Shown here in pieces: positions 20,565-53,576 of a stretch of 64,000 bases of DNA. The DNA lies in assembly GCA_035331565.1 (NCBI GenBank), contig DAOLKO010000017.1:30832-94831 (forward strand), read 5' to 3'. The notes under the pieces were generated by a model. It did not search any database. It saw only the letters and a program-made list of their open reading frames with translations, and was not told the DNA's origin. The DNA is from Blastocatellia bacterium. Lineage in GTDB: Bacteria; Acidobacteriota; Blastocatellia; RBC074. The position numbers and the translations under genes were made by a program. Positions within the stretch are counted from its first letter, which is position 1; each line of letters opens with the position of its first letter.

Positions 20565-21902
20565 ATGTCTCGTAAACGCCATCACAGCACTCAGCGCCCG
20601 CGCCGGCAATTCGGTTCGGATCGTTCCTATCAAGCTTATCAAATTGATCTTCCCGCCCCGGCAATTACTCGTACGGAGCTGGTACGTCTGATTCGCGGCG
20701 GCGAAGACACTTATCTTGAACTCAAAGTCCGCTTCAGCAACGTCGAAAAGATGATTGCCGAAATCATCGCGCTGGCTAACACCGACGGCGGCGTGATTGT
20801 CTTCGGCGTCAACGATCAATTGCGCATTGAAGGCGTGGACGACCCTGAAAGCGTCGAAGAACAATTGCGCGACATCTGCGCGCACCAGATTCAGCCGCCA
20901 ATCTTTCCGTACATCAACAAAGTCGCCTTCGACAGCGGACGCCGCGTCGTCGTTCTGGAAGTCGAAGCCGACAATCGCCCGCACCGCACGCTGGACGACC
21001 GTTTTTACCTGCGTGAAGGTGCCATCAAACGCGAAACAACTCGCGAAGAATTGTCCGGCCTTTTCCACGAAAAACACCTGGTTCATTTTGAACAAGTCCC
21101 AGTCTTCCAGGCGCACATCGAAGAAGACATTGATGAGTCGCTGCTGTGGAGTTATGTGCGCGGCGTCAACCCGGGTTACTGGGGCGAAACGTCGAAAGGC
21201 TACCCCAACGACACTGTGCTGCGTGATATGGGACTGGCTGTCAAAATCGGTGAAGATTGGCTGCCGACGGCGGGCGGACTGATGTTGTTCGGGATGAACG
21301 ACCGCCTTGCTCGATTGATGCCGCGCTCCGATATTCAACTAACCCGATTCAGCGGCATTCACAAAAACGGACATCCGTCGCCAATCATTGAACGGGCGCA
21401 TTTACACGGCAATCTGCTGCGGCAATTCGACGGCGCACTGAACTTCATCAAACGTTACGTGGATTTGTGGGACGCTCGGCCTTCGCGCAAAAGCCTGGAA
21501 ACCGATGCCGCCAAACCTGACGCGGCGGCGGAACACCCAATTGCTGGTCGAGCCAATTATCATCGCGGCGCGGTGATTGAAGCCTTGACCAACTTCATCG
21601 CCCACCGCGACCTGAGCACGCGCGACCGGCAAGCGCGCATCAACATTTATGACGACAGCCTCGAATTCATCAATCCCGCGCAGCCAATTGAACTGCCCAT
21701 AGTCTCGCTGCGTTATGGCGTTGCCGCCCCGCCGAATCCACGACTGAAAGCCATCTTCACCAACCGGCATTACGGCACGCTCTCTACACAAGGCGGCATC
21801 CCCATGATTTGCGCCGAAACCATCAACTTCGCCCGCCGCGCTCCCGAAGGTCCAACCCTGACCAACAACGAATTCCGACTGAAACTGCACGGATTACAAT
21901 AA
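20565..21902 (+). CDS. AlbA_2 (Schlafen-like) DNA-binding domain + HATPase_c_4-like C-terminal domain protein (putative regulator / ATP-binding protein)
   Basis: N-terminal LIRGGEDTYLELK...ALANTDGGVIVFGV pattern. C-terminal region typical of RecG-C-like HATPase_c_4. Confidence 0.7.
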   Translation: MSRKRHHSTQRPRRQFGSDRSYQAYQIDLPAPAITRTELVRLIRGGEDTYLELKVRFSNVEKMIAEIIALANTDGGVIVFGVNDQLRIEGVDDPESVEEQLRDICAHQIQPPIFPYINKVAFDSGRRVVVLEVEADNRPHRTLDDRFYLREGAIKRETTREELSGLFHEKHLVHFEQVPVFQAHIEEDIDESLLWSYVRGVNPGYWGETSKGYPNDTVLRDMGLAVKIGEDWLPTAGGLMLFGMNDRLARLMPRSDIQLTRFSGIHKNGHPSPIIERAHLHGNLLRQFDGALNFIKRYVDLWDARPSRKSLETDAAKPDAAAEHPIAGRANYHRGAVIEALTNFIAHRDLSTRDRQARINIYDDSLEFINPAQPIELPIVSLRYGVAAPPNPRLKAIFTNRHYGTLSTQGGIPMICAETINFARRAPEGPTLTNNEFRLKLHGLQ

Positions 21903-35070: not shown

Positions 35071-38124
<3,054 letters not shown>

Positions 38125-38161
38125 AGGGGGAATGGAGGAAACAAGGTGGAGATGCTGCGCG

Positions 38162-38716
38162 TCAGGCCCGGCTCAGTTGGTGAAAGAGCCAGGCGCGCGC
38201 CAGCTTCCATTCGCGCGCGACGGTGCGCGGCGAAATGCCGAGGAACGTTGCAATTTCTTCAACGGCGAGGCCGCCGAAAAACTTGAGTTCGACGATCCTG
38301 CCGCGGCGCGGGTCGAATTGTTCGAGCGTCGTCAACGCATCGTGCAGCGCCTCGAAATCCGCCTCGCGTTCGGTGCTTTGCCCGTCTGCTTCACTCAACG
38401 AAACCTTGATGCCCTTGCGTTTGCGCGCGTGGTCAACCAGGACGTTGCGCATCACGCCCGCCGCCACGCCGAAAAACTGCGTGCGGCTTTCCCACGCGAT
38501 GTTTTGCCAATCAATCAGCCGCATGAACGCCTCATTGACCAGCGCCGTCGTTTGCAAGGTGTGCCCCGCGCGCTCGTTACGCAAACGCACGCGTGCCATC
38601 CGATGCAACTCAGCTTCGACCAGCGGCACCAGGCGTTCCAACGCCTGCGCATCGCCCGCGCTCCAGGCGCTCAGCCATTGCGTGACTTCCTGCGGCGACG
38701 GTGTGTCCACGCTCAA
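38162..38716 (-). CDS. ECF-type sigma-70 family RNA polymerase sigma factor (STK-associated subgroup)
   Basis: Region 2 (ALVNEAFMRLIDW) and region 4 HTH (LAVEEIATFLGISPRTVAREW). The N-terminal TQWLSAWSAGDAQALERL motif is typical of the kinase-coupled ECF group. Confidence 0.85.
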   Translation of the reverse strand: MSVDTPSPQEVTQWLSAWSAGDAQALERLVPLVEAELHRMARVRLRNERAGHTLQTTALVNEAFMRLIDWQNIAWESRTQFFGVAAGVMRNVLVDHARKRKGIKVSLSEADGQSTEREADFEALHDALTTLEQFDPRRGRIVELKFFGGLAVEEIATFLGISPRTVAREWKLARAWLFHQLSRA

Positions 38717-38928: not shown

Positions 38929-39501
38929 ATGCCTACGGCTTACACAAAAAAACTCGCGACAGTCGCGCAGGCGCAATACGACAAGTACCATTGGCTGCAT
39001 GAGGACGATGCGCCCTTAGCCGCCCAGATCAAAAAATACTGGCAGGAAATCAATCTGAATTTTCCCGACGTTGATACGCCCTGGTCGGCGGTCTTCGTTT
39101 CCTGGTGCATCTCGAACGCCGGTGCCGGCAGCGATGAATTCAAATTCGCGGCGGCTCACTCCGTCTTCGTCCACTGGGCCATCAAGAATGCAACGGCGGG
39201 CACGGGACTGTTTCAAGGCTTCGCCATTTCGGACTATGCCCCGCAACTCGGCGACATCATCCAACACAACCGCGGCGGCAATCATTTCGATTTCGCCTTT
39301 GCCACGGCTAACAAAAATTACATCTCGCATTCGGCCATCGTGGTCGAGACCGGCGAAGACCCGCAGGGCAAATACGCGCTCACCATCGGCGGCAACGAAG
39401 GCGATTCGGTGGGCCGCAAACTGGTGCGGTTGAAGCCCAACGGCTTGATCAAGCAGCGGGAAAACAGCCCCTTCATCTGCGTCATTCGGAACTTGAAATG
39501 A
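38929..39501 (+). CDS. Hypothetical protein, possible papain-fold (Cys/His) hydrolase; tentatively DUF2272-like
   Basis: PWSAVFVSWCI (candidate nucleophile Cys) and YISHSAIVV (candidate His). AAGGAGAA RBS. The family assignment is from memory only. Confidence 0.5.
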   Translation: MPTAYTKKLATVAQAQYDKYHWLHEDDAPLAAQIKKYWQEINLNFPDVDTPWSAVFVSWCISNAGAGSDEFKFAAAHSVFVHWAIKNATAGTGLFQGFAISDYAPQLGDIIQHNRGGNHFDFAFATANKNYISHSAIVVETGEDPQGKYALTIGGNEGDSVGRKLVRLKPNGLIKQRENSPFICVIRNLK

Positions 39502-39587
39502 GTTGAGCCAAAACGGCGGCAAAAGAAAAGAACCCGAACCAGCTGCGTAGCGGTTCGTTCTCGGCACGCTTTCCCATCGGAGGTTTC

Positions 39588-40568
39588 ATGAAAAGAATTT
39601 GGTTATTGCTTGTCCTGTGCGGCGGCCTATTGCTCGCCGCCTGCGGAAGCCACGGCACGCCGAAAATCCCGACCGGCATTTCCCGCCAAGGCATCGGCGA
39701 ATATGCCGCCGTCACCTTTCAAAAGGACTACGAGAACTACACAAAACAGGTGAATGAAAACAATGTGGAGGCCGCCCGGCTGATTCGTGACCGGCTGATT
39801 AATCGCATTGAGTTGGACATCGAACGGAATTACCGCGAATACGAAGCCAAGCTGTTTTACAACCGCTCCAGCGGCAACGTCGCTGCCGACATCGTTGACC
39901 TGGGTATGTCCGCAGCGGTCGGGGCGACGGCGGAAGTCGCAGTCAAAGATATGCTGGCGGCGGCGCTGACCAGTTTCAAAGGCGCACGGCTTTCGTTCGA
40001 CCGGAACTTCTTCCGCGAAAAGACGACCGAGATCATCGTCTCGAAGATGCAAGCCTACCGCGACCGCGTGCGCAATCGAATTACCGAAAAGATGGCGAAG
40101 CTCGGCGCGCGGGAATATCCCTTCGAAGCCGCCTGGCGCGATCTGGTCGAGCATTTTTATGCTGGCACCTTGCAAGGCGGCCTTCAGTCGCTCGCCAACG
40201 ATGCAGGCAAGGAGGCCGCTGCCGCCAAAGAGGAAACCAAGGAAATCGAACGTGAATTGCTTTGTGTACCCTCCGAGGATGATGTGGCGCGTGCCAGGGA
40301 AATTCGCGGACGCTTTGCCAGGCTGGTCGAGAACCTAAATTCATCCAATGCGGACACCGCCAAAACCGCACGCCAACAAGCACAGGAATTACTGACGAAA
40401 CTGGGCGGTTCAGTTGTGCTTGTCGGCAATGACGACGCCGACGGCAAAAAGCTGCGAACGGCACTGGAACCATTTATCAGGGACAGTTTCAGCAGAACCA
40501 GCGACGGAAAATGCAGCGCCAAATCGGCGGCGATTCTGCTTGAGGGCTTGCCCAAATTGCCCCAATAA
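39588..40568 (+). CDS. Hypothetical lipoprotein (326 aa)
   Basis: Lipobox LLLAACGS after a signal peptide; largely alpha-helical and charged; no known domain. Confidence 0.7.
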   Translation: MKRIWLLLVLCGGLLLAACGSHGTPKIPTGISRQGIGEYAAVTFQKDYENYTKQVNENNVEAARLIRDRLINRIELDIERNYREYEAKLFYNRSSGNVAADIVDLGMSAAVGATAEVAVKDMLAAALTSFKGARLSFDRNFFREKTTEIIVSKMQAYRDRVRNRITEKMAKLGAREYPFEAAWRDLVEHFYAGTLQGGLQSLANDAGKEAAAAKEETKEIERELLCVPSEDDVARAREIRGRFARLVENLNSSNADTAKTARQQAQELLTKLGGSVVLVGNDDADGKKLRTALEPFIRDSFSRTSDGKCSAKSAAILLEGLPKLPQ

Positions 40569-40600
40569 CCATCAAGAAAAGGCAAGAAAAGGAGTAAACC

Positions 40601-40933
40601 ATGTCTACTGCATTCGACCTGCGCGGCAACTTAACATTGGCAGAAATGACCAATGCTTTGATCGTCAAAGAGCAAACCGGTTTTGTCAGGCTGACCAAAC
40701 TGGCGGCCAAAACCATCGGCGGCCAACGCCGCACGGAGGCTACTTTTGTGGATGATCCTTCCGTCGCTCCGCCGCCGAACTTACATCTGGTCGCGGTACA
40801 AGACGGCGACAATCTAACGGCGGTTGTAGCCACGCAACTCGCCCTCGGTCGTACTTTGCTCAACCCCGCAGGGCAACCGTTTTCTGTCTTCGTCAACGAC
40901 CAGCCCGCCAAAGTGTTGGTCTTTCGGGAATGA
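40601..40933 (+). CDS. Hypothetical protein (110 aa)
   Basis: ORF immediately downstream of the lipoprotein gene, followed by a GCCCTGTCC/GGACAGGGGC hairpin. Confidence 0.5.
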   Translation: MSTAFDLRGNLTLAEMTNALIVKEQTGFVRLTKLAAKTIGGQRRTEATFVDDPSVAPPPNLHLVAVQDGDNLTAVVATQLALGRTLLNPAGQPFSVFVNDQPAKVLVFRE

Positions 40934-41045
40934 GCGCCCTGTCCTTCAGGAAATTTACAGCAAGCGAGGACAGGGGCGAATGCGCCAGTGACCTGTCCTC
41001 GACTTCAATCACAAATTGAATCACCAAACTTTGGAGGAATTTGTC

Positions 41046-42035
41046 ATGCGTCAATGGAACGTACTCGGATTCGTGCGTCCACTGCTCGTTGTCCTGAGCC
41101 TGATGACCGGGCTGGCCATAGCCGGGCGGGCGGCAGACCCCGGCACGGAACTGCCGGCCACGTCGGAAATCAGCGATCAAAAACTCGGCTCCGTGCTGAT
41201 TTATCCGCTCGCGTTGTCCGGGGCTGCCGCCAATCAGGAAAACACGCGGTTTTCCATCACCAATCACAGCCTCACTTCGGCGGCGTTCATTCGTCTTCTC
41301 TTTATCAACGGCGTGAATGGGGCGGTGACGGATACTTTTATCTGTCTGACGGCGGGCCAGACGGCGACGTTTCTCCATTCGGACGTGGATCCGGGTGTGC
41401 GCGGATTTCTGGTTGGAATCTCCATAGACGGCGTTACCGGCGTGCCGAACAATCTCAATCAATTGTTCGGTGAAGCGAGCGTCAAACTCGCCGGCGGTCA
41501 TCAAGCCGGCTACAAGGCGGAAGCCATTGCCGCCGTTGCCGCCAATCCTGCTTCGGTGAATGGCAGCAATGCCACGCTGGCTTTTGACGGAACCAGCTAC
41601 AACCGATTGCCGCGCGCGCTGGCCGTAGATCGGCTGAAAAGCACTGCGGACGGCAATTCGACCATTCTGGCGCTGTGCCGCGTGGACGGGAATTACAACG
41701 TCGCTCTCGGCAGCCTGGGCGCGATCACCGGCACGATGTTCAACGACGCCGCCCAAGCCGCTCCATTCACACTGACCGGCGCGACGCAGGAATTCATCAC
41801 CTTGTCCGATGCCTTCCCGATTACTCCCGTGTATTCGCAATTGATCTCGGCGGGACGTTCAGGCTGGCTGCAAATCTGGCGGGATGCCGACGCGCCCTTG
41901 ATCGGCGCTACGCTCAATTTCAACGCCGGCACCGGATCGAACGGCAGCCGGTTCAACGGCGGCCACAACCTGCGCAAGCTGACGTTGACCGCCGCCGGTT
42001 CCATCACCGTTTCGATTTTAGCCCCTCCTTGTTGA
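41046..42035 (+). CDS. Secreted hypothetical protein; N-terminal domain paralogous to that of the 42095 protein
   Basis: Start ATG 41046 (MRQWNVLGFVRPLLVVLSLMTGLAIA) with a GGAGGA RBS. Shares the SDQKLGS(V/I)L(I/V)Y...AGRSGWL...GATLNFNA pattern with 42095..43963. Confidence 0.7.
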   Translation: MRQWNVLGFVRPLLVVLSLMTGLAIAGRAADPGTELPATSEISDQKLGSVLIYPLALSGAAANQENTRFSITNHSLTSAAFIRLLFINGVNGAVTDTFICLTAGQTATFLHSDVDPGVRGFLVGISIDGVTGVPNNLNQLFGEASVKLAGGHQAGYKAEAIAAVAANPASVNGSNATLAFDGTSYNRLPRALAVDRLKSTADGNSTILALCRVDGNYNVALGSLGAITGTMFNDAAQAAPFTLTGATQEFITLSDAFPITPVYSQLISAGRSGWLQIWRDADAPLIGATLNFNAGTGSNGSRFNGGHNLRKLTLTAAGSITVSILAPPC

Positions 42036-42094
42036 GCGCCATCCGCGAAAACCAAATCGAGACTAACTGAAGAGTTTTTGAAGGGAGATTCACC

Positions 42095-43963
42095 ATGCCG
42101 AATTTATTCAAACGTAGTTCATTGCTTGAGGGAAAGCGGAACAGATTTCAGTCTATTCGGTTCCGAGGACAGGCTGAAGCCCGTCCCACTTTGTTGCTGA
42201 TGTTGTTGCTGATGTTCTTTTCCGGCGCGGTTTGGGCGCAAACACCGCCGGGCACGGCCTTCCCGAACACTTCGGAGTTGAGCGACCAGAAACTCGGCTC
42301 CATTTTGGTCTACAACTACATTACTGCCGGGGGCGATCCCGCGACACAAAATACCGAACTAAATCTGACCAACACTCATCCGACGACGCCGGTAACGGTG
42401 CGGCTGTTTTTGGTTCGGGAAACGGGGCGTCCCATCAGTTTCTTTGTCACGCTGGCACCGCGCCAAACCGCCGGCTATCTGGTCAGCGATTTGTTGCAGG
42501 GTTTCAGCGTCAACGGCTATGCCGTGGCCGTGGCGGTGAACAGCGCCACGGGCTGTCCGATCAATTTCAACCATCTGGCCGGAGACGCGTTTATCAAACT
42601 CTCCGCCGGCCAGCGCGCGGGATTGCAGGCCGTCGCCATCGCCGCCATTGCTGCCAGTCCAGCCACGTGCAGCGGCGGTTCGACGACGCTGAATTTCGAC
42701 GGCACGAGTTACAACAAACTGCCGCGCGTGCTTTCGCTGAACAACATTCCGTCCCGAGTGGATGGAAACGACACCTTGTTAATCGTCAATCGCATCGGCG
42801 GCGACCTGACTTCCACAATGGCGACGGTGGGCACGCTGTTTGGACTCATCAGCGACGACGCGGAAAACTCTTTAAGTTTCTCTTTGAGCAGTTCGTCCAG
42901 CCAGTTACGTGGCATTTTGAGCGACGCCTTTCCCCGCCTCACACCGCGATTCACAATTTATATTCCGGCTGGGCGAAGCGGTTGGCTGCGAGTGTATAGC
43001 TTGCAGGATAACGCGTATCTCGGCGCGACGCTGAACTTCAACGCGAGCGCAGGATCATCGGCGAACGCCTATAACAACGGCCAGAACTTGACGCATAGAA
43101 CGCTGACGGTCGGCGGCACGACATTGACGATGCTGGTTTCTCCGCCGCCTTGCACCAACGCCATTGCGCCGGCCGGCGTGCAGCAGCCGAGCAGCGGCGG
43201 CAGCGGCAGCGTCACCATCACCGCGTTTTCCGATTGTTTGTGGACGGCGACCAGCAACGCCGCGTGGATCACCATCACTTCCGCAGCCAATGGCGCGGGC
43301 AACGGAATACTGAATTACTCCGCGGCGGCCAATCCGGGAACCACTCCGCGCACCGGCACGCTGACCGTCGCCGGGCAAACCTTCACCGTTACGCAGGCGG
43401 GCAATTGCCCTGTCATCACGATCAATCCGGCGACCTTGACCAGCGCCCGCGTCGGCGTGCCGTCCAACCAAACACTGACGGCCAGTGGAGGCGTTTCGCC
43501 GTACACCTTCGCCATCACCGCCGGAAGCCTGCCGATTGGGATGAGTTTGAGTTCGAGCGGCGTGTTGTCGGGCGTTCCGGCGCAACCGGCCACTTACAGC
43601 TTCACCGTGAGGGCGACGGGCAGTAACGGCTGCGCGGGAATTCGCAGTTATCAATTGGTCGTCATTCCAGCCTGCAACCTGACGATCAATCCGGCGAGTT
43701 TGCCGGCGGGAATTGCCGGAACGCCTTACAGCCAAACATTGACAGCCGGCGGCGGCGGCGCGCCGTACACCTTCGCGCTCAGCGACGGCGCGTTGCCGGG
43801 CGGCTTGAGTCTGTCCGCCGGCGGCGCGCTGACCGGCACGCCGACCACGGCGGGCACATTTACCTTCAGCGTCCGAGGCAGGGATTCCGCGCTGCCCGCT
43901 TGTACCGGCGAACGCCGATACACAGTGACGATCAATCCAGGCGGCAATTCGCCGCGAAAGTAA
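42095..43963 (+). CDS. Secreted hypothetical protein: paralogous N-domain + BACON-like domain + two to three Ig-like (He_PIG/dystroglycan-type) repeats
   Basis: AAGGGAG RBS before ATG 42095; an alternative start at ATG 42200 cannot be excluded. BACON-like CLWTATSNAAWITI...VAGQTFTVTQ. Ig-like repeats of the form NPA.L..G..G.PY.Q.LTA.GG..PYTF....G.LP.G..L. Confidence 0.75.
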   Translation: MPNLFKRSSLLEGKRNRFQSIRFRGQAEARPTLLLMLLLMFFSGAVWAQTPPGTAFPNTSELSDQKLGSILVYNYITAGGDPATQNTELNLTNTHPTTPVTVRLFLVRETGRPISFFVTLAPRQTAGYLVSDLLQGFSVNGYAVAVAVNSATGCPINFNHLAGDAFIKLSAGQRAGLQAVAIAAIAASPATCSGGSTTLNFDGTSYNKLPRVLSLNNIPSRVDGNDTLLIVNRIGGDLTSTMATVGTLFGLISDDAENSLSFSLSSSSSQLRGILSDAFPRLTPRFTIYIPAGRSGWLRVYSLQDNAYLGATLNFNASAGSSANAYNNGQNLTHRTLTVGGTTLTMLVSPPPCTNAIAPAGVQQPSSGGSGSVTITAFSDCLWTATSNAAWITITSAANGAGNGILNYSAAANPGTTPRTGTLTVAGQTFTVTQAGNCPVITINPATLTSARVGVPSNQTLTASGGVSPYTFAITAGSLPIGMSLSSSGVLSGVPAQPATYSFTVRATGSNGCAGIRSYQLVVIPACNLTINPASLPAGIAGTPYSQTLTAGGGGAPYTFALSDGALPGGLSLSAGGALTGTPTTAGTFTFSVRGRDSALPACTGERRYTVTINPGGNSPRK

Positions 43964-44021
43964 CGGAAAGCCGGGAGCGCCGAACGCTAGTTCCGCGCTT
44001 AAGAGATGCCAAATAACGATG

Positions 44022-44084
44022 AAAATGTGGGACAGGCTTTAGCCTGTCGCCACCGTGGACAGACTAAAGCCCGTCCCACATTTT
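44022..44084. promoter_or_regulatory. 63-bp near-perfect palindrome (27-bp arms, 2 mismatches, 9-nt spacer) built from two inverted copies of a GACAG(A/G)CT(A/G)AAGCCCGTCCCAC element, ~20 nt upstream of the giant-protein RBS
   Basis: Read directly. A third copy lies at 42168..42189. A related GCCCTGTCC/GGACAGGGGC IR lies at 40935..40977. Confidence 0.7.
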
Positions 44085-44101
44085 CCGAGGAGCTTACTGC
44101 C

Positions 44102-47100
44102 ATGATTCGACACTCTTTCTTTTTTGTTGCCGGGCGCGACCGAGCGCGCCGGTTGAGTTTCACATTCGCGGCCGCTTGTCTGCTGGGATTGGCGCTGCTT
44201 TTCGCGCTAAGCCTTCGCCGTGCGACCACGGCCCGCGCGATGTTCGCCACCATCACCGTCACCACCACCGCCGACACTGTCGCCGCCGACGGCCAATGCA
44301 GCCTGCGCGAAGCGATTCAGGCGGCCAACACCAACACCGCCGTCAACGAATGTGCGGCGGGCGCGGCGGGACTCGATACGATTCAATTCAATATCGGCTC
44401 CGGCACTCCAACCATTAATGTGACCAGCGCGCTGCCGACCGTCAGCGATCCGGTCATCATCAACGGCAACACCGGCGGCGCGACGCGCGTGGAATTAAAC
44501 GGCACGAGTGCGGGCGCGGGCATCAGCGGACTGACGATCACAGCGGGCGGCAGCACAGTGCAGGCGTTGGTCATCAATCGCTTCACAGCCAACGGCATTT
44601 CCTTGACGACCAGCGGCGGCAATGCGGTCAGAGGCTGCATCATCGGCCTGAATTCCGCCGGAACGACGGATCAGGGAAACACGCTTGTTGGCGTTTCCGT
44701 CAGCAGCACGGGCAACACCATAGGCGGAACCGAAGCCGGCGACGGCAATGTCATTTCCGGCAACAACAGTGCGGGAATCTTTCTGACCGGCGCGTCCAAC
44801 ACTGTGCAAGGCAACATCATCGGCTTGAACGCGGCGGGAACGGCAGCCGTTGCCAACAGCGTTGGCGGTATTCAAATCAACAACGCGGCCAATAATGTCA
44901 TCGGCGGTACGACGGCAGCGGCGCGCAACATCATTTCCGGCAACACCACGAGCGGGATTCGCATTTTGAACGCCGGAGCATCCAACACGCTGGTGCAAGG
45001 CAATTACATTGGCCCAGACCTCACAGGCGCACTTGACCTGGGCAATACGACGGACGGCGTGTTGATTGACACTGCCGCGCACGACAACACCATCGGCGGC
45101 GCGACGGCAGGTGCGGGAAACGTCATTTCCGGCAATAACAGCGACGGCATCGAAATCAATGGGGCAGCCGCAACTGCCAATTTGGTGCAAGGCAATTTCA
45201 TCGGCACCAATGCGACAGGAACCGGCGCGCTGGGCAACAGCCTGGCTGGGGTGTTTGTCACGGACGCTGCCAACACAACCATCGGCGGGACGACTGCCGG
45301 AGCGCGGAACATCATTTCCGGCAACAACAGCGGCGTTAATCTGAGCGGAGCGAACGCCGCCAACAATCTGGTGCAGGGAAATTACCTCGGCGCGGACGTG
45401 AATGGAACGGCCAGTCTGGCCAATGCCGTCAGCGTGACCATCGCCACCGCCCACGACAACATCATCGGCGGAACCGCCGCAGGTGCAGGAAATGTCATCA
45501 CCAGCATGAGCATTGGCGGACCGACCAATCTGATTCAGGGAAATTTGATCGGCACGAATGCGGCGGGAACGGCTGTGCTTGGTGTCGGTAACGGCGGCGT
45601 GACGATTTCCGCCGATAACAACACCTTTGGCGGAACCACGGCAGCAGCGCGCAACATTGTCGGCGGCCTGACCATCAGCGGCGCGAACAATACCGTTCAG
45701 GGCAATTACGTGGGCACGGATATCACCGGCACCGCAATACTGGGAAACGGAAGCGGCCTGGCTGTCAGCGGCAACAATAACATCATCGGCGGAACAGTCG
45801 CGGGCGCGAAAAATGTGATTTCCGGCAGCTTCTCCACCGGCGTTACGGTGAGCGGAACTGCCAATCAACTACAGGGCAATTTGATTGGAACCAACGCTGC
45901 CGGAACCAATACATTGAGCAATTCCGGCATTGGCCTGTACCTGCTAGGCTCGAATAACACCATCGGCGGAACGACGGCGGCGGCGCGTAACGTGATTGCC
46001 GCGAGCGGCGCGCAAGGCATATTCATCGAAGGCAATTCCAACACCGTGCAGGGCAACTTCATCGGCACGGACATCAATGGGACGGCGAATCTGGGCAACG
46101 TGATGGACGGCATCCGGCTGACCTTCGGCGCACAAGACAATCTGATTGGCGGAACCGTCGCGGGCGCGGGCAATCTCATCGCCTTCAGCGGGCAACGCGG
46201 CGTTTCGCTCAGCTTTTCCTCGACGGCGCAAAACCGGATTTTGGGAAACTCGATTCACTCGAGCGGCAGTCTAGGCATTGATCTGGGGAACAACGGCGTG
46301 ACGGCCAACGATCTGGGCGACGGCGACGGCGGCCCGAACAATCTGCAAAACTTTCCGGCGCTGGTGTCGGTGAGTTCGGGCGTCGGCACAACGACCGTCG
46401 CCGCCGGGTTGAGCAGTGCCGCCGGCACGCTCTACCGAATCGAATTCTTTTCCAATCCATCGTGCGACATTTCAGGCAACGGCGAAGGGCAGGTTTTTCT
46501 GGGTACGGCGGACGTGACGACCGACGCCAACGGCAACACGCCGATCAACGCCGTCTTGCCGGGAAATTTGGCTCCCGGGCACGTGGTGGCGATGACGGCG
46601 ACGGATCCGGCGGGCAACACCTCGGAGTTTTCCGCTTGCGGGGTTTGCACCTTCGGTTTGTCGCCGAGCGCGCAGCCATTTCAAGTGCCCGGCGGCAGCA
46701 ACAGTTTCAACATCACCAGTCAGATCGGCTGTCCGTGGACGGCGGTCAGCAACGATCCCTGGATCACCATCAATTCAGGCGCAAACGGATTCGGCAACGG
46801 CACGGTTGCTTACACCGTGGCCGCCAATGCCGGAGCATCGGCGCGCGTCGGTTCGATCACGGTCGCCGGGCAAACCTTCTTTGTCAGTCAGGCGGCGGTC
46901 GGCGAATTGATTTCGACGGATTTTTCCGGCGGCATTCCGCCCGGTTGGGTAGTCGCTCACGGCGGAACGGGATTTTATCCGGGCGGACAGCCCGCCACCT
47001 GGACGACGGCCAATCCCTGCAATCGCGTGATTCCGTCGCCCTTCGCGCCGCCCTTCGCGATTGTGGATTCGCAATGCGCCGTTCCGCCCGCCACTCAGGA

Positions 47101-49501
47101 TGAATCGCTGATCACGCCGCCCTTTGACGCGACGGGGCAGGGGCAAGTCGTGTTGCGGTTCGACAATCAATTCCGCTGGTTTTCCGGCGGCGACAACGAA
47201 ATCGGCGATGTGGATGTGACCACGGACGACGGCCGGAACTGGATCAACGTTTTGCGCTTTCAGGGCGGAGATGACGGTTTCCCTACTCCCACTGTCCAAA
47301 ATCTGAACCTGACGCCATTTATTGCCGGCAATCCGCCCAATGTGCGCGTGCGGTTTCATTACTACGTGACCGCCGCGCCTCTGTTGGCCAGACACAAGCC
47401 GGTCAAACCGAACATTCCCGTAGGCCAGGAGCTTTCCTGGGGCATAGACCGGCCCGCCATCGTGTCGTTCACCATCGGGCCGACCAATCGAGCCATCGGG
47501 CAGAACGGCGGAACGGGGCAAGTGGCGATAGAGGCCGCTACCAGCGTGCCGTGGACTGCGGAAAGCCACGTTCCCTGGATTCAACTATTAGCCGGTGCCG
47601 GCGTGGGAGCGGGTTCGGTCGGTTATGAAGTGATGCCGAATCTGACCGGCGCGCCACGCTTCGGCACAGCTACGATTGCCAACAACACCTTCACCATTTT
47701 GCAGGACGGCAGTTGTTTGACGATCACCGTCAATCCAACGACTTTGCCCGGCGGCACGGCCGGTATGCCGTATCAGCAAACATTGACGGCCAACGGCGGG
47801 CTTGGACCTTATGTTTTCGCGACCACTGCGGGAAGCTTGCCGAACGGCCTGACTCTTTCTCCAAACGGCGTGCTGACCGGAACACCGACGGCGTTCGGCA
47901 CATTCAACTTCACCGCCGGCGTCACAGACGCCAGCAACTGTACGGGGACGCGGAATTATGAATTGGTCATCAGTGCCGGCTGCGCCGTCACCGTCAGCCC
48001 GTCCGGCCTGCTCGCCGGAACGGTCGGCGCGGCTTATAACCAAACGTTGACGGCCAACGGCGGAACCGCGCCTTACAGTTTCAGCCTCAGCGCAGGCAGT
48101 TTGCCGGGCGGATTGAGTTTGTCCGCCGGCGGCGCGCTGACCGGAATGCCCACGATGGCAGGAAACTTTACGTTCACCGTTCGCGCGACGGACTCTTCGC
48201 CGAGCGCCTGCACCGGCGACCGGCAATACACCGTAACCATCAGCCCGCCCGGCAACGGCTTGCAGTTCTTCCCGCTGCCGCAACCGGTTCGTTTGCTCGA
48301 AACCCGCGCCGGTCTGACGGGCTGCACCACGCCCGGCGCAATCATTGATGCCGGCAGCACGTTCACGCTGCCCGCACGAACGACCTGCGCAGGCATTCCC
48401 GCCAACGCTCAAGCCGTTACCGGTAACATCACGGTCGCGCCCACGGGCGGCGGCTTCCTGACCTTGTTCCCCAGCACGGCGGCGCAACCCACCGTCGCCA
48501 ATTCCAACTTCGGCCCCAACGAAGTCACCAACAACGTCTTCACAGTCGGCTTGGGAGCGGCGGACGGCGCGTTCAAGATTTTCGCCAGCGGCACGACGCA
48601 CGTCATCGTTGACGTGACCGGCTACTACGCGCCTCCGGCATTAAGCGGGGGGGGCGGCTTGTACTTCCATCCTTTGGCCACGCCGGTGCGCTTGCTGGAA
48701 ACGCGCGCGGGCTTGAATGGCTGCTTCGCGCCGGGAGCACAGCTCATCGGCACTGGCGATCCGAACTCCGATCCGAATCAGGATTTCGCCATTCAGGGCC
48801 GTTCGCCAGTGGCTTCGCCTTGCAACTCGATTCCGGCTTCGGCGCAGATGCTGGTCGGCAACGCGACGAGCGTCGTTCCCGATGGCGGCGGCTATTTGAC
48901 GATCTATCCCAGCGGCGGCACGCGCCCATTGATCGCCAGTTCCAACTACAGCGGCAGCGACGTCATCAACGGCCCGTTCACCGTCAAACTCGGCGCGGAC
49001 GGCAAGTTCAAGATTTACACCTTGAGAACGACGCATCTGGTGGTGGACATCATCGGCTATTACAGCGAGGAAGCCGTGGACGCGAGCGGCGTGGGATTGC
49101 TCTTCAATCCTTTGCCGATTCCGGTACGCCTGCTGGAAACGCGCCCGGGCGGGCCGCCGCTGGTCGGCTGTACGCGGACGAACGCGCCGATTCAAGGCAA
49201 TCTGAACGCGGCCACGCATACGCAGCCGGCTGCGGGCTTTTGCGGATTGCCGACGTCGGCGCAGGCGGTGGTCGGCAATGCCTCGGTGGTCAGCACGCCG
49301 GCGGCGGGCTTCCTGACGCTGTTCCCAGGCAATCTGACCATAGCGCCGCTGGTGGCTACATCGAACTACCCGACGCCGGCGGCTTCGGGTTACAACCGGC
49401 ATATTTTCGTCGGGTTGAGCCCGGTGGACGGGACGTTCAAGGTGCTGACGTCAGCCACAACAGACTTGATCCTGGATGCGTCAGGCTATTTCGCGCCCTA
49501 A
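44102..49501 (+). CDS. Giant secreted protein (~1800 aa): N-terminal right-handed parallel beta-helix repeat region, two BACON-like domains, three Ig-like repeats, three C-terminal ~140-aa repeats
   Basis: Start ATG 44102 (MIRHSFFFVAG...LLGLALLFALSL) with a GAGGAG RBS; the track ORF from 44006 would read through the upstream palindrome. CSLREAIQAAN...DTIQF N-motif; GNxxxGxxxG beta-helix repeats; NLQNFP...FFSNPSCD end-cap. Ig-like and BACON-like modules are shared with 42095. Confidence 0.8.
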   Translation: MIRHSFFFVAGRDRARRLSFTFAAACLLGLALLFALSLRRATTARAMFATITVTTTADTVAADGQCSLREAIQAANTNTAVNECAAGAAGLDTIQFNIGSGTPTINVTSALPTVSDPVIINGNTGGATRVELNGTSAGAGISGLTITAGGSTVQALVINRFTANGISLTTSGGNAVRGCIIGLNSAGTTDQGNTLVGVSVSSTGNTIGGTEAGDGNVISGNNSAGIFLTGASNTVQGNIIGLNAAGTAAVANSVGGIQINNAANNVIGGTTAAARNIISGNTTSGIRILNAGASNTLVQGNYIGPDLTGALDLGNTTDGVLIDTAAHDNTIGGATAGAGNVISGNNSDGIEINGAAATANLVQGNFIGTNATGTGALGNSLAGVFVTDAANTTIGGTTAGARNIISGNNSGVNLSGANAANNLVQGNYLGADVNGTASLANAVSVTIATAHDNIIGGTAAGAGNVITSMSIGGPTNLIQGNLIGTNAAGTAVLGVGNGGVTISADNNTFGGTTAAARNIVGGLTISGANNTVQGNYVGTDITGTAILGNGSGLAVSGNNNIIGGTVAGAKNVISGSFSTGVTVSGTANQLQGNLIGTNAAGTNTLSNSGIGLYLLGSNNTIGGTTAAARNVIAASGAQGIFIEGNSNTVQGNFIGTDINGTANLGNVMDGIRLTFGAQDNLIGGTVAGAGNLIAFSGQRGVSLSFSSTAQNRILGNSIHSSGSLGIDLGNNGVTANDLGDGDGGPNNLQNFPALVSVSSGVGTTTVAAGLSSAAGTLYRIEFFSNPSCDISGNGEGQVFLGTADVTTDANGNTPINAVLPGNLAPGHVVAMTATDPAGNTSEFSACGVCTFGLSPSAQPFQVPGGSNSFNITSQIGCPWTAVSNDPWITINSGANGFGNGTVAYTVAANAGASARVGSITVAGQTFFVSQAAVGELISTDFSGGIPPGWVVAHGGTGFYPGGQPATWTTANPCNRVIPSPFAPPFAIVDSQCAVPPATQDESLITPPFDATGQGQVVLRFDNQFRWFSGGDNEIGDVDVTTDDGRNWINVLRFQGGDDGFPTPTVQNLNLTPFIAGNPPNVRVRFHYYVTAAPLLARHKPVKPNIPVGQELSWGIDRPAIVSFTIGPTNRAIGQNGGTGQVAIEAATSVPWTAESHVPWIQLLAGAGVGAGSVGYEVMPNLTGAPRFGTATIANNTFTILQDGSCLTITVNPTTLPGGTAGMPYQQTLTANGGLGPYVFATTAGSLPNGLTLSPNGVLTGTPTAFGTFNFTAGVTDASNCTGTRNYELVISAGCAVTVSPSGLLAGTVGAAYNQTLTANGGTAPYSFSLSAGSLPGGLSLSAGGALTGMPTMAGNFTFTVRATDSSPSACTGDRQYTVTISPPGNGLQFFPLPQPVRLLETRAGLTGCTTPGAIIDAGSTFTLPARTTCAGIPANAQAVTGNITVAPTGGGFLTLFPSTAAQPTVANSNFGPNEVTNNVFTVGLGAADGAFKIFASGTTHVIVDVTGYYAPPALSGGGGLYFHPLATPVRLLETRAGLNGCFAPGAQLIGTGDPNSDPNQDFAIQGRSPVASPCNSIPASAQMLVGNATSVVPDGGGYLTIYPSGGTRPLIASSNYSGSDVINGPFTVKLGADGKFKIYTLRTTHLVVDIIGYYSEEAVDASGVGLLFNPLPIPVRLLETRPGGPPLVGCTRTNAPIQGNLNAATHTQPAAGFCGLPTSAQAVVGNASVVSTPAAGFLTLFPGNLTIAPLVATSNYPTPAASGYNRHIFVGLSPVDGTFKVLTSATTDLILDASGYFAP

Positions 49502-49568: not shown

Positions 49569-49640
49569 GTAACGGTTCAGCCCCAGGTGCGCATCGCTTC
49601 GCACGCTGGAAGCGATGCGCACCTGGGGCTGAACCGTTAC
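49569..49640. repeat. Perfect 32-bp inverted repeat (8-nt loop) between the convergent giant-protein gene and the TonB-dependent receptor gene
   Basis: GTAACGGTTCAGCCCCAGGTGCGCATCGCTTC / GAAGCGATGCGCACCTGGGGCTGAACCGTTAC; verified base by base. Confidence 0.9.
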
Positions 49641-49657: not shown

Positions 49658-52600
49658 TCAGAACGTGACCTTCAATGCAAATTGGATGATGCGCGGATCG
49701 AAGGTTTGCGTTACCTGTCCGAACAACACGCTGGAAATGTTGGTACTCGGATCGCGGAACTGAGCGGAGTTGAACAGATTGAAAAACTCCGCGCGGAATT
49801 CCGTCTTGACCCGTTCGCCGATCAGCGGCGTGACTTTGGTCAGCGCCAGATCGAAGTTCGTGCGGCCTGGGCCGTTGAAGAAATTGCGCGGTGTTGTGCC
49901 GTAAGTGCGCAGCGCCGGATTCGTCACCGCCGCTCGGCCTGAAGTGTCCAATCCGGCGGTGGTGAAATTGGCCGGGTTGAAAAAGTAATTGCCGTTGCGG
50001 TTGTTGAAGCTCTGCGCCTGTTTCACCTCGAAAGTATTGACGGAGCTTCCGGTCAGATTGGCGCGCACCAACCCGCCGTCGCCCGCGCCTGAAGGGCCGG
50101 GCGTGGTGATGTCGTTGAAGAAATTCGCGCCGCCGAATACATCCAGCGGGAAGCCCGTACGCCAGGTGATGATTGGGAACAGATTCCAACCCGCTGTCAG
50201 CCTGTGCGGTCCTTTCGACCAGGCACGGTCAAAGGGCAGTTCCCAACCGCCGCTGAATACCAACCGCTGCCGCACGTCGAAATCCGAAGACGCACGAAAC
50301 TGATTGCTGTTGTAAGTCGGTGCCTGGCTGTTGCGATTTCGGAAGCCGGAGACGGTGTCAATCGAATGTCCCAAGGTGTAGGCCAATTGGAAGCTTGTTT
50401 CACCCAGGAAGCGCGTCACCGAAGGCCGCTTCGACAAGGTCAGTTCCAGACTGTTGAAACTGCCCGTGCCGACGTTGCGGAACTCCGGCAGGAACGCGAA
50501 GGTATTCGCCGCCACGCCCGCTTGCGCGTTGAACAAACGCACCACTCGCGCATCACCCGGCAGGAACGGATTGGCATCCACCAACCCTGTCAGTTTGTGC
50601 GACGAATTGCCGACGTAGCTGGCTTCCACCGCAAGGTCTTTGTAAAGCTCGCGCTGAATGCTCAGGTTGTATTGATAGGTGTACGGCGTGCGCAGATTCG
50701 GATCCACGAAATACACGCCGCTGCCGCCGGCAGGTAAAAATCCGGAAGCCGCGAAATCCACGTTGCCGGCCGGAGGCCGTGAAGGAAAACTATTAGGCAC
50801 ATTCGCGGCAACATAGGGTTGGCTCAAATAATTGACCTCGCGCGTCGGGTTGGCAGTCAAGGTCGGAAGATTGAACCCGCTGAAACCGAAGAAGGGTGCT
50901 TGCCCGTTGAACTGCAAATTGTCCTCGCCTTTCAGAATGTCGTAGAACACGCCGAAGCCGCCGCGCACGCTGGTTTTGCCGTTGCCCCAGGGTGCCCAGG
51001 CAAAGCCTAGTCGCGGCGCGAAGTCATTCTTGTCGGGATGATTCGACCCTTCTGGAATTCCTTGATCGCCTGGGAAAACCAAACCGAGCGGCGCTTTCGT
51101 GAAGCGAGTGGATTGCTGCCCCAGCTTGAGCGAGAACGAACGCCCCTGCAGGTCTTTTTTCGGCGTGCTGTATTCGTAACGCAGCCCATAAGTCAGCGTG
51201 AAATTGCGCGTCACCTTCCACTCATCCTGCCCGAACACAGTGGTCGCTTTGGTGCGGATGTTGGAGGGCGCTTCGGGGAATTGCGTGTAATCGTTCGCCA
51301 GGCCGAGCAGGAAATCCGCAAAGCCGTTGCCGCTGAAGCGCGTGCCGCGAAAACGGAAGCGACCGTTGATGAAGAAATCGAAAACCGTGTTGTTTTGATA
51401 AGGCGTAAACGACGCGCCGAACTTCAGCCCGTGCTTGCCTTTTTGCCAGGTCAGCGTGTCTGAATAACCGAAGGTGTTGTCAATCAAGTTCGTCGGCCCG
51501 CCCCGGCTGAATCCCAGCGTCAAGCCGTTGCCGAAAGCGATTTGTGTTGGGCCGGTCGGGTTGTCCGGCGTGATGCCTATGCCCAAGTCCGCCGGCTTCG
51601 GCAGTTCGCGGGCAGGCACGCTTTGCAGATTGTTGTTGCGCTGCGCCGTGAAACGAAAATCGTTGAGCAGAGTCGGCGAGAAGATTTTCGTGTAAGCGAA
51701 ATTCGAGAAGTAACGACGGTTCTTGGTCGTCACCGGAAAGCCTGAAACATTGGCTTCCGCCGTGAAGGGGATCAACTGCGGGTTGTCCAGCCAACCCAGT
51801 GTCGCCGTGATTTTGTCGTTCGGCGACAGGTTGAAATCGAATTTGAGCGTCAGCTCGTCGTTGTCGTTTTTGGCGGCGCTGCGTGAAATCAGCGAGCCGC
51901 CGGCGGCGGTCGGGATCAGGCCGGCGCTGATGTAGTTTTTCGCCACCGTGTTGATACGCGCCGGATCAATGATGCCTTGCGCGGCCAGCGCCGCATCCGC
52001 TTGGAAATACGGGAAACGTTGCAGGAAGGAAACCACGCCCGCATCCGGGCCGGTGCGCGCGGCGTTTGAGCGCGAAAAATTGCCGCGCAATTCATCCGGT
52101 GTGAAGACAGTGATGGCCGCCGTTGTTTGCGCTTGCGACAGGCGCTGCCCCTGATAGCCGGCAAAAAAGAAAAACCGATCCTTGCCGTTGACGATTTTGG
52201 GAATCCAGATTGGGCCGCCAAAAGTCGCGCCGAATTGATGACGTTTGAGCACATCGCGGCTGCGCCCGTCACGGTTGTTGAAAAAGGTATTGGCGTTGAA
52301 GGCGTCGTTGCGCACGAAATCATAGGCGCTGCCGTGCAGCGCGTTCGTCCCGGAGCGAGTGACGACGCTGATGATGCCGCCGGCATTGCGCCCGAACTCC
52401 GCCGTGAAATTGCTGGTCAGAATGCGGAACTCCGCCACCGCCTCCGGGTTGGGATTGAACACCACGCCATTGCTGAGCAAATTGTTGTTGTTGCCGCCGT
52501 CGAGCAAAAACGTCACCGAATCCGCACGCCCGCCGGCCACCGAGAAACTGCCCGCGCCGCCGTCACCGGGATTGGTTTCAGTCACCCCCGCTTGCAACAG

Positions 52601-53088
52601 CGCCAGGTTGAGCACGTTGCGCCCGTTGAGCGGCGTATTGATGATTTGCCGCCCCGTCACCGATTGGCCCAAAGTCGGATTGACGGTTTCCACATTGGAA
52701 GAAGCCACCGTGATTTCAACCGATTCGCTGCTTGCGCCGACTTCCAGCACGGGGTCGAAGCGCAAAACCTGATTGATCTGCAAGGTTTGTTCGCTGCTCA
52801 CCAATCGTTTGAATCCTTGATGCTCGACCGTCACGCGATAAGCGCCCAGCGGCAACGATGGAACCTGATAACTGCCGTCGGACGCCGTAACGGTTTCGCG
52901 CGCAATGCGCGTCGCCACGTTGGTAACAGTCACTTTCGCTCCGACAATCACCGCGCCCGTCGGATCGGTAACGGTTCCGGCAATGCGTCCCGTAGCGTCT
53001 TGCGCAAATGCCGTTGCGTATATCGTCAGCAAGAGGCCGACGACGAACGCCGGCGCAAACTTACAACTTCCTCTGTTGTGTTTCTTCA
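49658..53088 (-). CDS. TonB-dependent receptor with N-terminal carboxypeptidase-regulatory-like domain
   Basis: Signal peptide (MKKHNRGSCKFAPAFVVGLLLTIYATAFAQ), a CarbopepD_reg-like beta-sandwich, plug and 22-strand barrel ending in the aromatic C-terminal residue F. The start coordinate is approximate to within 1-2 nt: ATG 53088 is off by one from the track's coordinate frame. The track ORF begins at 53215. Confidence 0.85.
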
Positions 53089-53576
53089 TAAGGTCTCCCG
53101 GAATTTGAGCTATTGAGTGAGTGGCTGCTTTTGCAAGCCATACAATTCTTTGAACAAGAATTTGGTGTTGATTTAGGCAAGCAATATGCCGACAGCGAGA
53201 AGTTGGCCGCTGCAATTGCCAACTCCCGGCTCGTAAAAGCAGAGATTCAATTTACTTGCTGTCCTTTTTCTCAACGCCGACGACAGAGGATGCAACAGTC
53301 ATTTTGTGGCGGTGGACGCGCCGGCGAGTTGACCTTTTTGGAGGAGACAATGATTTTTCGGAAGCCCTCTCCAGCGCGGGTTGAAGGCTTTGCTCCGCTC
53401 GACGGGATGCGCTTGTAAATATTTGTAACGGTTGTAGACAGCTTGCAAAAACAAACGAATCTTCGTTCGGACTTCGTCATTGTGCCCGGTATATTGCCGC
53501 CGCCGAACGTAACCATTCGATTGAAGAACAATGTCTGCTCCGCTTGAACCACGCGTGGAGCAAACGAGGGGGAAAA

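Follow-up and report, generated by a model that had tools for sequence, protein, structure and literature searches.

The window, i.e. the whole 64-kb stretch of DNA that was analysed, comes from a Blastocatellia (Acidobacteriota) MAG, a soil Acidobacterium. Six open reading frames between positions 38929 and 49501, all on the + strand, were found as reported in the preliminary description, each with a Shine-Dalgarno-like sequence on its 5′ side (AAGGAG, GGAGG, AAGGAG, GGAGG, GGGAG and GAGGAG, from g1 to g6). They encode a DUF2272 protein, which is a putative papain-like hydrolase of the NlpC/P60-CHAP type (g1, 38929–39501); a lipoprotein, as recognised before, with the lipobox LLAAC (g2, 39588–40568); a protein of 110 aa (g3, 40601–40933); a signal peptide followed by a stand-alone β-sandwich domain of ~300 aa that ends in PPC (g4, 41046–42035); a protein with a long signal peptide, a g4-like domain (aa 49–353), a BACON domain and two He_PIG domains (g5, 42095–43963); and a modular protein of 1,799 aa (g6, 44102–49501). 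The earlier view that all six proteins are secreted holds for g4–g6, which are predicted to be exported, and fails for g1 and g3, in which neither a signal peptide nor a hydrophobic N-terminus was apparent on reading the sequence. Profile searches placed g1, g5 and g6 in known families and g2, g3 and g4 in none, and no product has an experimentally known function, consistent with the earlier statement that none could be assigned one.

An ECF sigma factor gene (38162–38716, − strand; Pfam Sigma70_ECF PF07638, E 1.4e-47) diverges from g1. Downstream of it lies a gene for a Ser/Thr protein kinase with C-terminal PD40 β-propeller repeats (35071–38124, − strand; Pfam Pkinase E 5e-48, PD40 E 2e-34). 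At the 3′ end, the previously noted TonB-dependent receptor gene (CarboxypepD_reg, Plug and OMP_b-brl_4; 49658–53215, − strand) converges on g6, and the sequence between the two contains a perfect 32-bp inverted repeat with an 8-nt loop (49569–49640, unstranded), which is likely a bidirectional terminator or a REP-like element. A second unstranded hairpin (GCGCCCTGTCCT ... AGGACAGGGGCG) was read in the g3/g4 spacer (40934–40978). The GGACAGRCTRAAGCCCGTCCCAC hairpin element occurs in three copies in the window, against none expected; one lies inside g5 (42167–42189, + strand), and two form a 65-nt hairpin that lies immediately 5′ to the ribosome-binding site of g6 (44021–44085, + strand). The surrounding region (43960–44110) folds as RNA at −63.4 kcal/mol (z −6.2), and this hairpin is kept in the related loci L001–L003. 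Rfam matches on it were rejected as spurious microRNA families, far under their gathering scores. A scan for sigma-70 promoters returned none, and terminator-like sites were at chance level.

Gene g1 and the g2–g3 pair

The g1 product was assigned to DUF2272 (PF10030; Pfam E 2.6e-19, 70.2 bits with the cut-off at 27). It also gave a sub-threshold CHAP match (E 4e-4) and weak matches to endolysin PHROGs, and no PDB chain, that of Tse1 included, was similar in sequence at E ≤ 0.5. The earlier designation of g1 as a possible Cys/His hydrolase had to be corrected, as S53 replaces the nucleophile Cys of the papain fold in the motif PWSAVFVSW. A Ser at this position is typical of the DUF2272 family, which has been grouped with Tse1-like amidases (PMC10318531). 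The g1 protein resembles the rest of its family in this residue and in scoring above the gathering threshold, but differs in lacking a signal peptide and in having neighbours that are not kept family-wide. Judged from its sequence, g1 is a putative Ser-variant, papain-like cell-wall or peptide hydrolase, with the ECF sigma/kinase pair in divergent orientation.

A total of 38 homologs of g2 were found, and the family was located at 23 genome loci, which belong to Acidobacteriota, Verrucomicrobiota, Planctomycetota and Undibacterium; the lipobox Cys is at least 90% conserved. The sole conserved neighbour across 26 related loci is g3: in 23 of them, jackhmmer detected a g3 homolog as the gene directly after that of g2. 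Relatives of g4–g6 were found at none of the 26, and DUF2272 adjoins g2–g3 in one only (L008), where the three genes stand next to the same ECF–kinase pair (44–48% identity). By conserved gene order, g2–g3 is a separate unit, made up of a lipoprotein and a partner of ~100 aa and conserved across four phyla. Searches of g2, g3, g4 and the C-terminal triple repeat of g6 against Pfam, NCBIfam, PHROGs, PADLOC and the PDB gave nothing significant. The g2–g3 genes constitute a compact, multi-phylum pair without assigned function.

Synteny, divergence and architecture of g4–g6

The six genes had been taken for one locus, the test of which was to be their synteny in relatives. The block as a whole is not kept: DNA synteny with L001–L003 begins at a blastn breakpoint at 40959, inside the g3/g4 hairpin, and extends to the end of g6, so that g4–g5–g6 (40959–49501) is, on sequence comparison, the only block syntenic with relatives. 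In L001–L003, it is flanked upstream by apionate lactonase/ABC transporter genes and downstream by a kinase and an ECF sigma gene, and the TonB-dependent receptor is missing from the position adjacent to g6. Genes g1–g3 are absent beside g4–g6 in L001–L004. Identity to the L001 orthologs is 91% for g4 and 83–90% for the central domains of g6. It drops to 64% in the g6 β-helix, with 129 gap positions, and to 61% in the g6 triple repeat, as expected if the stalk and tip are exposed and diversifying.

The three proteins share modules. A domain of ~305 aa is common to g4 and g5 (40% identity, E 4e-61), in support of the proposed paralogy. More distant homologs of g4, at 45% identity, stand alone. 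The start codon of g5 is homologous to that of its L001 ortholog, and a 69-nt in-frame insertion, which contains the element copy mentioned above, distinguishes the n-region of its signal peptide. Above curated cut-offs, g5 matches He_PIG (PF05345, 88 bits) and BACON (PF13004, 37 bits), and g6 matches He_PIG (78 bits) and CSLREA_Nterm (TIGR04214, 43.5 bits, E 2e-11); Pfam places two He_PIG domains in each. The BACON match of g6, at 22 bits, falls just under the cut-off of 25, yet this domain is 52% identical to that of g5. The C-terminal stretch of 262 aa in g5 shows 51% identity with residues 1157–1417 of g6, which bears out the shared BACON/He_PIG cassette, and a second BACON copy is found at g6 residues 881–963. 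From its N-terminus, g6 comprises a signal/anchor segment, the CSLREA motif, about ten β-helix-type repeats of ~60 aa, in keeping with the giant β-helix protein described earlier, an NFP...GNTSEFS region and BACON; these are followed by a weak choice-of-anchor-J-like jelly-roll, a BACON-like domain, the He_PIG pair and the C-terminal triple repeat.

Exchange of cassettes within g4–g6 is clear and goes beyond what had been noticed. The triple repeat of g6 in the window is 86–89% identical to modules of other proteins and 61% to that of its own ortholog. In L004, one type of C-terminal triple repeat is borne both by a reprolysin-type metalloprotease and by a g5-like protein, and L004 and L034 both have arrays of a similar kind whose passengers differ.

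The two terminal modules

At 50% identity, clusters with the g4-like domain number at least 1,640. Among the 148 best matches, the domain takes the C-terminal position in 130, most often ending in PxC, on passengers that include HYR, FG-GAP, Calx-beta, He_PIG, DUF11 and P-domain. In g5 and its orthologs it is N-terminal, and a protein may carry two or three copies. Its predicted fold is an ASRT-type β-sandwich that matches TM1070/ASRT, a superfamily predicted to bind sugars (PMC2739507). Pfam ASRT did not match g4 at E ≤ 0.01, the family profile matched no PDB sequence, hhalign detected no internal repeats, and relatives of the domain were not found on viral contigs.

The C-terminal module of g6 (48254–49498, + strand) consists of three tandem jelly-roll repeats of ~135 aa, each with a conserved Cys pair, and ends in GYFAP. 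It is present in at least 443 proteins and is C-terminal in 116 of 120 matches, mostly with YFAP or FFAP as last residues. Each repeat is predicted to adopt a jelly-roll/β-sandwich protomer fold, as in C1q/TNF or the Bd2133 tip. By fold, the three-repeat model (pTM 0.88) matches best the tip of the Bdellovibrio Bd2133 fibre, which is trimeric (PMC10769870), and a single-chain C1q head, with which two repeats co-align; the co-alignment with single-chain C1q-type trimers covers 188–194 residues. On the strength of the pTM and this co-alignment of ~190 residues with single-chain C1q heads, the three repeats probably pack as a single-chain mimic of trimeric fibre tips or C1q/TNF heads.

Both modules occur together in one protein in L004 and P0247, and passenger-less versions are represented by g4, L005, L006 and L033. 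The last is an IMG/VR contig that bears a stand-alone triple-repeat gene; its neighbours have no Pfam or PHROG match that would support a viral context, and a phage origin of the modules was rejected. Both modules, although very common, are absent from Pfam (2025) and NCBIfam (2026), and their folds, predicted with confidence, point to recognition of glycans or other ligands. The literature on CSLREA and on acidobacterial sorting domains yielded no description of either, which is not proof of absence.

Proposed function and alternative explanations

Acidobacteria, Blastocatellia included, abound in soil but are poorly cultured, and little is known about their attachment to surfaces, polymers and cells. 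We lean slightly towards reading the 10.5-kb stretch as three independent units, namely g1, g2–g3 and g4–g6, with the last as an adhesin- or lectin-like modular array. Genes g4–g6 would be a lineage-specific tandem array of Sec-exported proteins, destined for the cell surface and built from a class-wide kit of β-rich modules. Within it, g6 would be fibre- or adhesin-like, with a CSLREA-capped β-helix stalk of variable repeat number, BACON and Ig-like spacers, and a C-terminal head of three tandem jelly-rolls, whose ligand would be external and most likely a glycan. Proteins g4 and g5 would carry a different terminal module of ~300 aa, i.e. the ASRT/TM1070-like, putatively sugar-binding β-sandwich. 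The array would diversify by tandem duplication, change in repeat number and swapping of terminal modules. It counts against this reading that an outer-membrane crossing route for g4–g6 was not identified.

Alternatively, the g4-like domain and the YFAP triple repeat may be class-wide sorting or anchoring domains for an export or surface-attachment pathway instead of binding heads, with a role like that of T9SS C-terminal domains and of SLH or CWB2 triplets. We regard this as unlikely, although the strictly C-terminal position and the conserved end residues fit such a role as well as they fit a binding head. Both modules are found at the extreme C-terminus in about 90–97% of matches, on many unrelated passengers, in several copies per genome and also in passenger-less form, and their conserved Cys pairs indicate an extracytoplasmic location. 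Against it stand the N-terminal and multiple g4-like domains, the coexistence of both modules in one protein, and the lack of any conserved neighbouring machinery gene at the loci compared. In addition, no part of g6 diverges faster between orthologs than the triple repeat, which would not be expected if it docked to a fixed partner in the cell. That the two modules are signals of an undescribed, Blastocatellia-specific protein-display pathway with hundreds of passengers appears distinctly unlikely; if true, g4 would be a passenger-less copy, and g4–g6 a hot spot of duplication and recombination of cargo genes.

It is quite improbable that the six genes together make up a single cell-surface or contact-dependent system, possibly under the control of the divergent ECF sigma factor. 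They are co-directional, with short spacers, and lie beside an ECF sigma/kinase pair; this pair recurs with g1, g2 and g3 in L008 and also flanks g4–g6 in L001, so common regulation of all six may exist. The restriction of synteny to g4–g6, with g2–g3 paired elsewhere, argues that the six genes are not one system, and stable hairpins separate g3 from g4 and g5 from g6. The contact-dependent part of the original proposal finds no support either: Pfam, NCBIfam and PADLOC searches of g1–g6 and their neighbours revealed no toxin, immunity, defence-system or secretion-system signatures and no delivery domains of CDI or polymorphic toxins (TPS, haemagglutinin repeats, Rhs/YD, PAAR or VgrG), and in place of a variable C-terminal toxin followed by an immunity gene, g6 ends in a structural triple repeat and is followed by the convergent receptor gene. 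As judged from synteny, the one-system reading is largely refuted.

A locus of the polysaccharide-utilisation type, in which the g6 β-helix would act on glycans as a lyase or hydrolase, the substrate would be bound by BACON and other domains and the receptor would import the products, is very doubtful. BACON, a right-handed β-helix, sugar-binding-like folds and the neighbouring TonB-dependent receptor would suit it, but the receptor is convergent and not beside g6 in L001–L003, Pfam and NCBIfam found no SusD-like or CAZyme family, adjacent ORFs included, Pfam Beta_helix gives no significant match (E 0.81), and the g6 repeats look like structural PbH1-type coils. Least credible of all is a pair of a T6SS-type peptidoglycan amidase effector (g1) and a periplasmic lipoprotein immunity protein (g2) beside unrelated large adhesins: the fold family of g1, its lack of a signal peptide, the lipoprotein gene that follows and the placement of DUF2272 with Tse1-like amidases (PMC10318531) are opposed by the association of g2 with g3, the single further case of DUF2272 adjacency, the size (326 aa) and cross-phylum conservation of g2, which are unlike typical immunity proteins, the lack of sequence similarity between g1 and Tse1, and the absence of T6SS genes from the 64-kb window.

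Returning to the adhesin- or lectin-like array, g4–g6 would be a fast-evolving trio, probably sugar-binding, that illustrates how proteins diversify through duplication, changes in β-helix repeat number and swapping of tip modules. Once the two modules are defined, thousands of giant proteins now labelled 'hypothetical' could be annotated better, and concrete targets would be available for work on binding and localisation.

Comparison with known systems

With T9SS cargo of Bacteroidota, as well as SLH and CWB2 proteins, the proteins described here share unrelated passengers, one conserved C-terminal β-rich module and passenger-less copies. They differ in that the modules span 300–415 aa, compared with ~80–100 aa, that the g4-like domain may also be N-terminal, and that a T9SS context is not known from this lineage. 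Neither Por_Secre_tail (TIGR04183/PF18962) nor another sorting domain was detected by Pfam and NCBIfam in g4, g5, g6 or the isolated modules. Compared with ASRT/TM1070 (ASRAH), the g4-like domain is three times larger, has additional β-sandwich parts and possesses a conserved Cys pair, which includes the terminal Cys, without a detectable internal repeat.

To our knowledge, the Blastocatellia source organism is not a predator. Together with C1q, the nearest structural parallels of the g6 head are the mosaic adhesive trimer (MAT) fibres that Bdellovibrio bacteriovorus forms (e.g. Bd2133) and phage tail-fibre tips. A MAT tip is a homotrimer to which each chain contributes a single domain. In g6, by contrast, one chain carries all three copies in tandem, there is no sequence similarity, and the predicted stalk is a single-chain CSLREA-type β-helix and not trimeric. 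Likewise, g6 has no sequence relationship with the heads of the C1q/TNF superfamily, to which the likeness is one of predicted fold; the single-chain arrangement is natural in g6, and each of its repeats has its own conserved disulfide loop.

Gene organization

Six + strand genes were delineated, with likely starts at 38929 (g1), 39588 (g2), 40601 (g3), 41046 (g4), 42095 (g5) and 44102 (g6), each preceded by a Shine-Dalgarno-like sequence, as the preliminary description had reported. For g6, position 44102 was preferred over the longer 44006 version, since the latter would cross a conserved intergenic hairpin. Upstream of g1 lie a gene for a Ser/Thr kinase with PD40 repeats (35071–38124) and a divergent ECF sigma gene (38162–38716), and downstream of g6 a TonB-dependent receptor gene converges on the 3' end of the cluster, as also described. 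The claim that all six products are secreted had to be restricted, as g1 and g3 lack a signal peptide. The g1 product, previously listed as a possible Cys/His papain-fold hydrolase, was instead assigned to DUF2272 (E 2.6e-19), its motif PWSAVFVSW placing Ser at the papain-fold Cys position, which is typical of that family (PMC10318531). Elsewhere in the window, a Schlafen/AlbA_2-domain protein (20565–21902; Pfam E 5.5e-21) is encoded among housekeeping genes and is unrelated to g1–g6.

Modular architecture of g4–g6

The proposed paralogy of g4 and g5 was reproduced over a common domain of ~305 aa (40% identity, E 4e-61), as was the cassette shared by g5 and g6, in which the C-terminal 262 aa of g5, comprising one BACON and two He_PIG modules confirmed by Pfam, are 51% identical to g6 residues 1157–1417. 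The g6 protein carries a further BACON copy, and its N-terminal CSLREA motif (NCBIfam) is followed by the anticipated beta-helix, with ~10 repeats of ~60 aa of the right-handed type. Between its two BACON copies, a stretch (46892–47473; aa 963–1156, numbered from 44006) gave a weak, near-full-length and sub-threshold NCBIfam match to choice-of-anchor J (E 0.0075, 16.5 bits against a cut-off of 30).

Searching 1.84 billion representative proteins with a profile of the g4-like domain returned 1,640 clusters at E <= 0.001, 738 of them at E <= 1e-30; named members belong to Blastocatellia or Acidobacteriota, and several are encoded on one 9.5-Mb contig. Of the 148 best matches, 130 have the domain at the very C-terminal end of a large protein, most commonly closing with Pro-x-Cys, behind HYR, FG-GAP, Calx-beta, He_PIG, DUF11/DUF7933 or proprotein-convertase P domains as passengers. 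Thus, g4 is a copy that lacks a passenger, and g5 is unusual in carrying the domain N-terminally.

The last 415 residues of g6 consist of three repeats of ~135 aa that each contain a conserved pair of Cys residues; we infer that these repeats may form a single-chain pseudo-trimeric head. No match to this triple repeat was found in Pfam, NCBIfam or PDB sequences; its fold matches include carbohydrate-binding modules and PNGase F. Comparable tips in Bdellovibrio serve as exchangeable recognition heads mounted on beta-helical fibres (PMC10769870). The homologs of the module number more than 443, of which the best 120, all from Blastocatellia, Pyrinomonadaceae or unclassified Acidobacteriota, were used for counting. 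Within this set, the module closes the protein in 116, is present with all three repeats in 100, and ends in YFAP (91) or FFAP (16). Its passengers include He_PIG, BACON, FG-GAP, HYR, PPC, Calx-beta and delta-60, among other domains. On a contig with a viral classification (IMGVR_UViG_3300033076_001470), an ORF of at least 1,639 aa is followed by a stand-alone gene for the triple repeat (4944–6146; 47% identity to that of g6); none of the five ORFs checked there had a Pfam or PHROG match, which leaves the viral context unconfirmed.

The fixed C-terminal position of both terminal modules and the conservation of their end residues would suit sorting or anchoring signals of an undescribed display pathway. 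This main alternative is nevertheless rather doubtful, as N-terminal and multi-copy occurrences exist, the two modules can be found together in one protein, and the tip diverges fast. Against the orthologs on contig L001, identity is 91% for g4, 76–84% for the g5 domains and 83–90% for the central g6 domains, compared with 64% for the beta-helix (129 gap positions, a difference of some two repeats) and 61% for the triple repeat. The latter is 86–89% identical to modules of other proteins, and in two further loci (L004 and L034) both terminal modules are borne by differing passengers. Judging from these alignments, module swapping is real, and the putative tip and stalk are the fastest-changing parts, a pattern more in keeping with an exposed recognition structure than with a fixed anchor.

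Synteny

On three contigs carrying a 91%-identical g4 (L001–L003), g4-g5-g6 are present and g1–g3 are not; genes for sugar-acid catabolism and an ABC transporter border the array at one end, and a kinase/ECF pair borders it at the other. DNA similarity to L001 begins at 40959, within the g3/g4 spacer, and extends to the end of g6. At 71% identity, in L004, a g4-like gene lies between genes for a reprolysin-BACON protein and a g5-like protein, and the g4 homologs at 45% identity stand alone in unrelated gene neighbourhoods.

The g2 product, a ~320-aa lipoprotein with the motifs LSxDKNFFREKTTEII and YxFEEAWxDLVEFFYAGTLQGG, has homologs in Acidobacteriota, Verrucomicrobiota, Planctomycetota and the betaproteobacterium Undibacterium. 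Its gene is tightly linked to g3 (~100 aa; the pair spans 39588–40933 and recurs in loci L007–L032), a homolog of which directly follows on the 3' side in 23 of 26 related loci. No further neighbour is conserved among these, and neither protein has an annotation in the databases. DUF2272 and an ECF-kinase pair adjoin g2-g3 in one of the related loci only (L008), in a different order.

The stretch therefore splits into three units: g1, which in this lineage may be loosely tied to g2-g3 and the ECF-kinase pair; the g2-g3 pair; and the g4–g6 array. The preliminary description was largely right in its observations, but not in interpreting the six + strand genes as one novel contact system, which is unlikely given that the relatives' synteny takes in g4-g5-g6 only and g2-g3 travels separately. 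Readings as a T6SS effector-immunity pair or a polysaccharide-utilisation locus are likewise unlikely.

Hairpin elements and adjoining ECF/kinase genes

Two inverted copies of the GGACAGRCTRAAGCCCGTCCCAC element form a 65-nt hairpin just 5' of the g6 ribosome-binding site (44021–44085; L001 12868–12934), kept in L001–L003 at 91% identity. The RNA fold of 43960–44110 scored z = -6.2 against shuffles, and the hairpin may act in RNA stability, processing or attenuation, or may be a REP-like repeat. Another copy lies in a 69-nt in-frame insertion in the n-region of the g5 signal peptide (42140–42210; hairpin 42167–42189), which measures 48 aa against 25 aa in the L001 ortholog (11046–11098), with the frame intact. 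A related hairpin occurs at 40934–40978. GGACAGG occurs 13 times in the window, an enrichment over the 4.6 expected, and six of these occurrences fall between 38787 and 44036. Between the convergent g6 and receptor genes, a perfect 32-bp inverted repeat with an 8-nt loop (49569–49640) is followed by no T-run.

Genes for an ECF sigma factor (PF07638 type) and/or a Ser-Thr kinase adjoin surface-protein or g2-g3 genes in four contexts: as pairs in the window (35071–38716), L001 (18158–20987) and L008 (2123–5168), and as a kinase alone at a contig end (L034 1–46). Such recurrence could arise by chance in Acidobacteria, which are rich in kinases, or could mark a regulatory link.

Proposed role

We lean, with modest confidence, towards g4–g6 encoding exported, modular, adhesin-like proteins that would bind glycans or other ligands and belong to a class-wide expansion, with g1 and g2-g3 as unrelated neighbours. 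The g4-like domain and the triple repeat, two large unannotated module families, are worth cataloguing, as is the conserved g2-g3 pair. The g4–g6 products would represent a familiar kind of modular surface protein, here from a soil bacterium.
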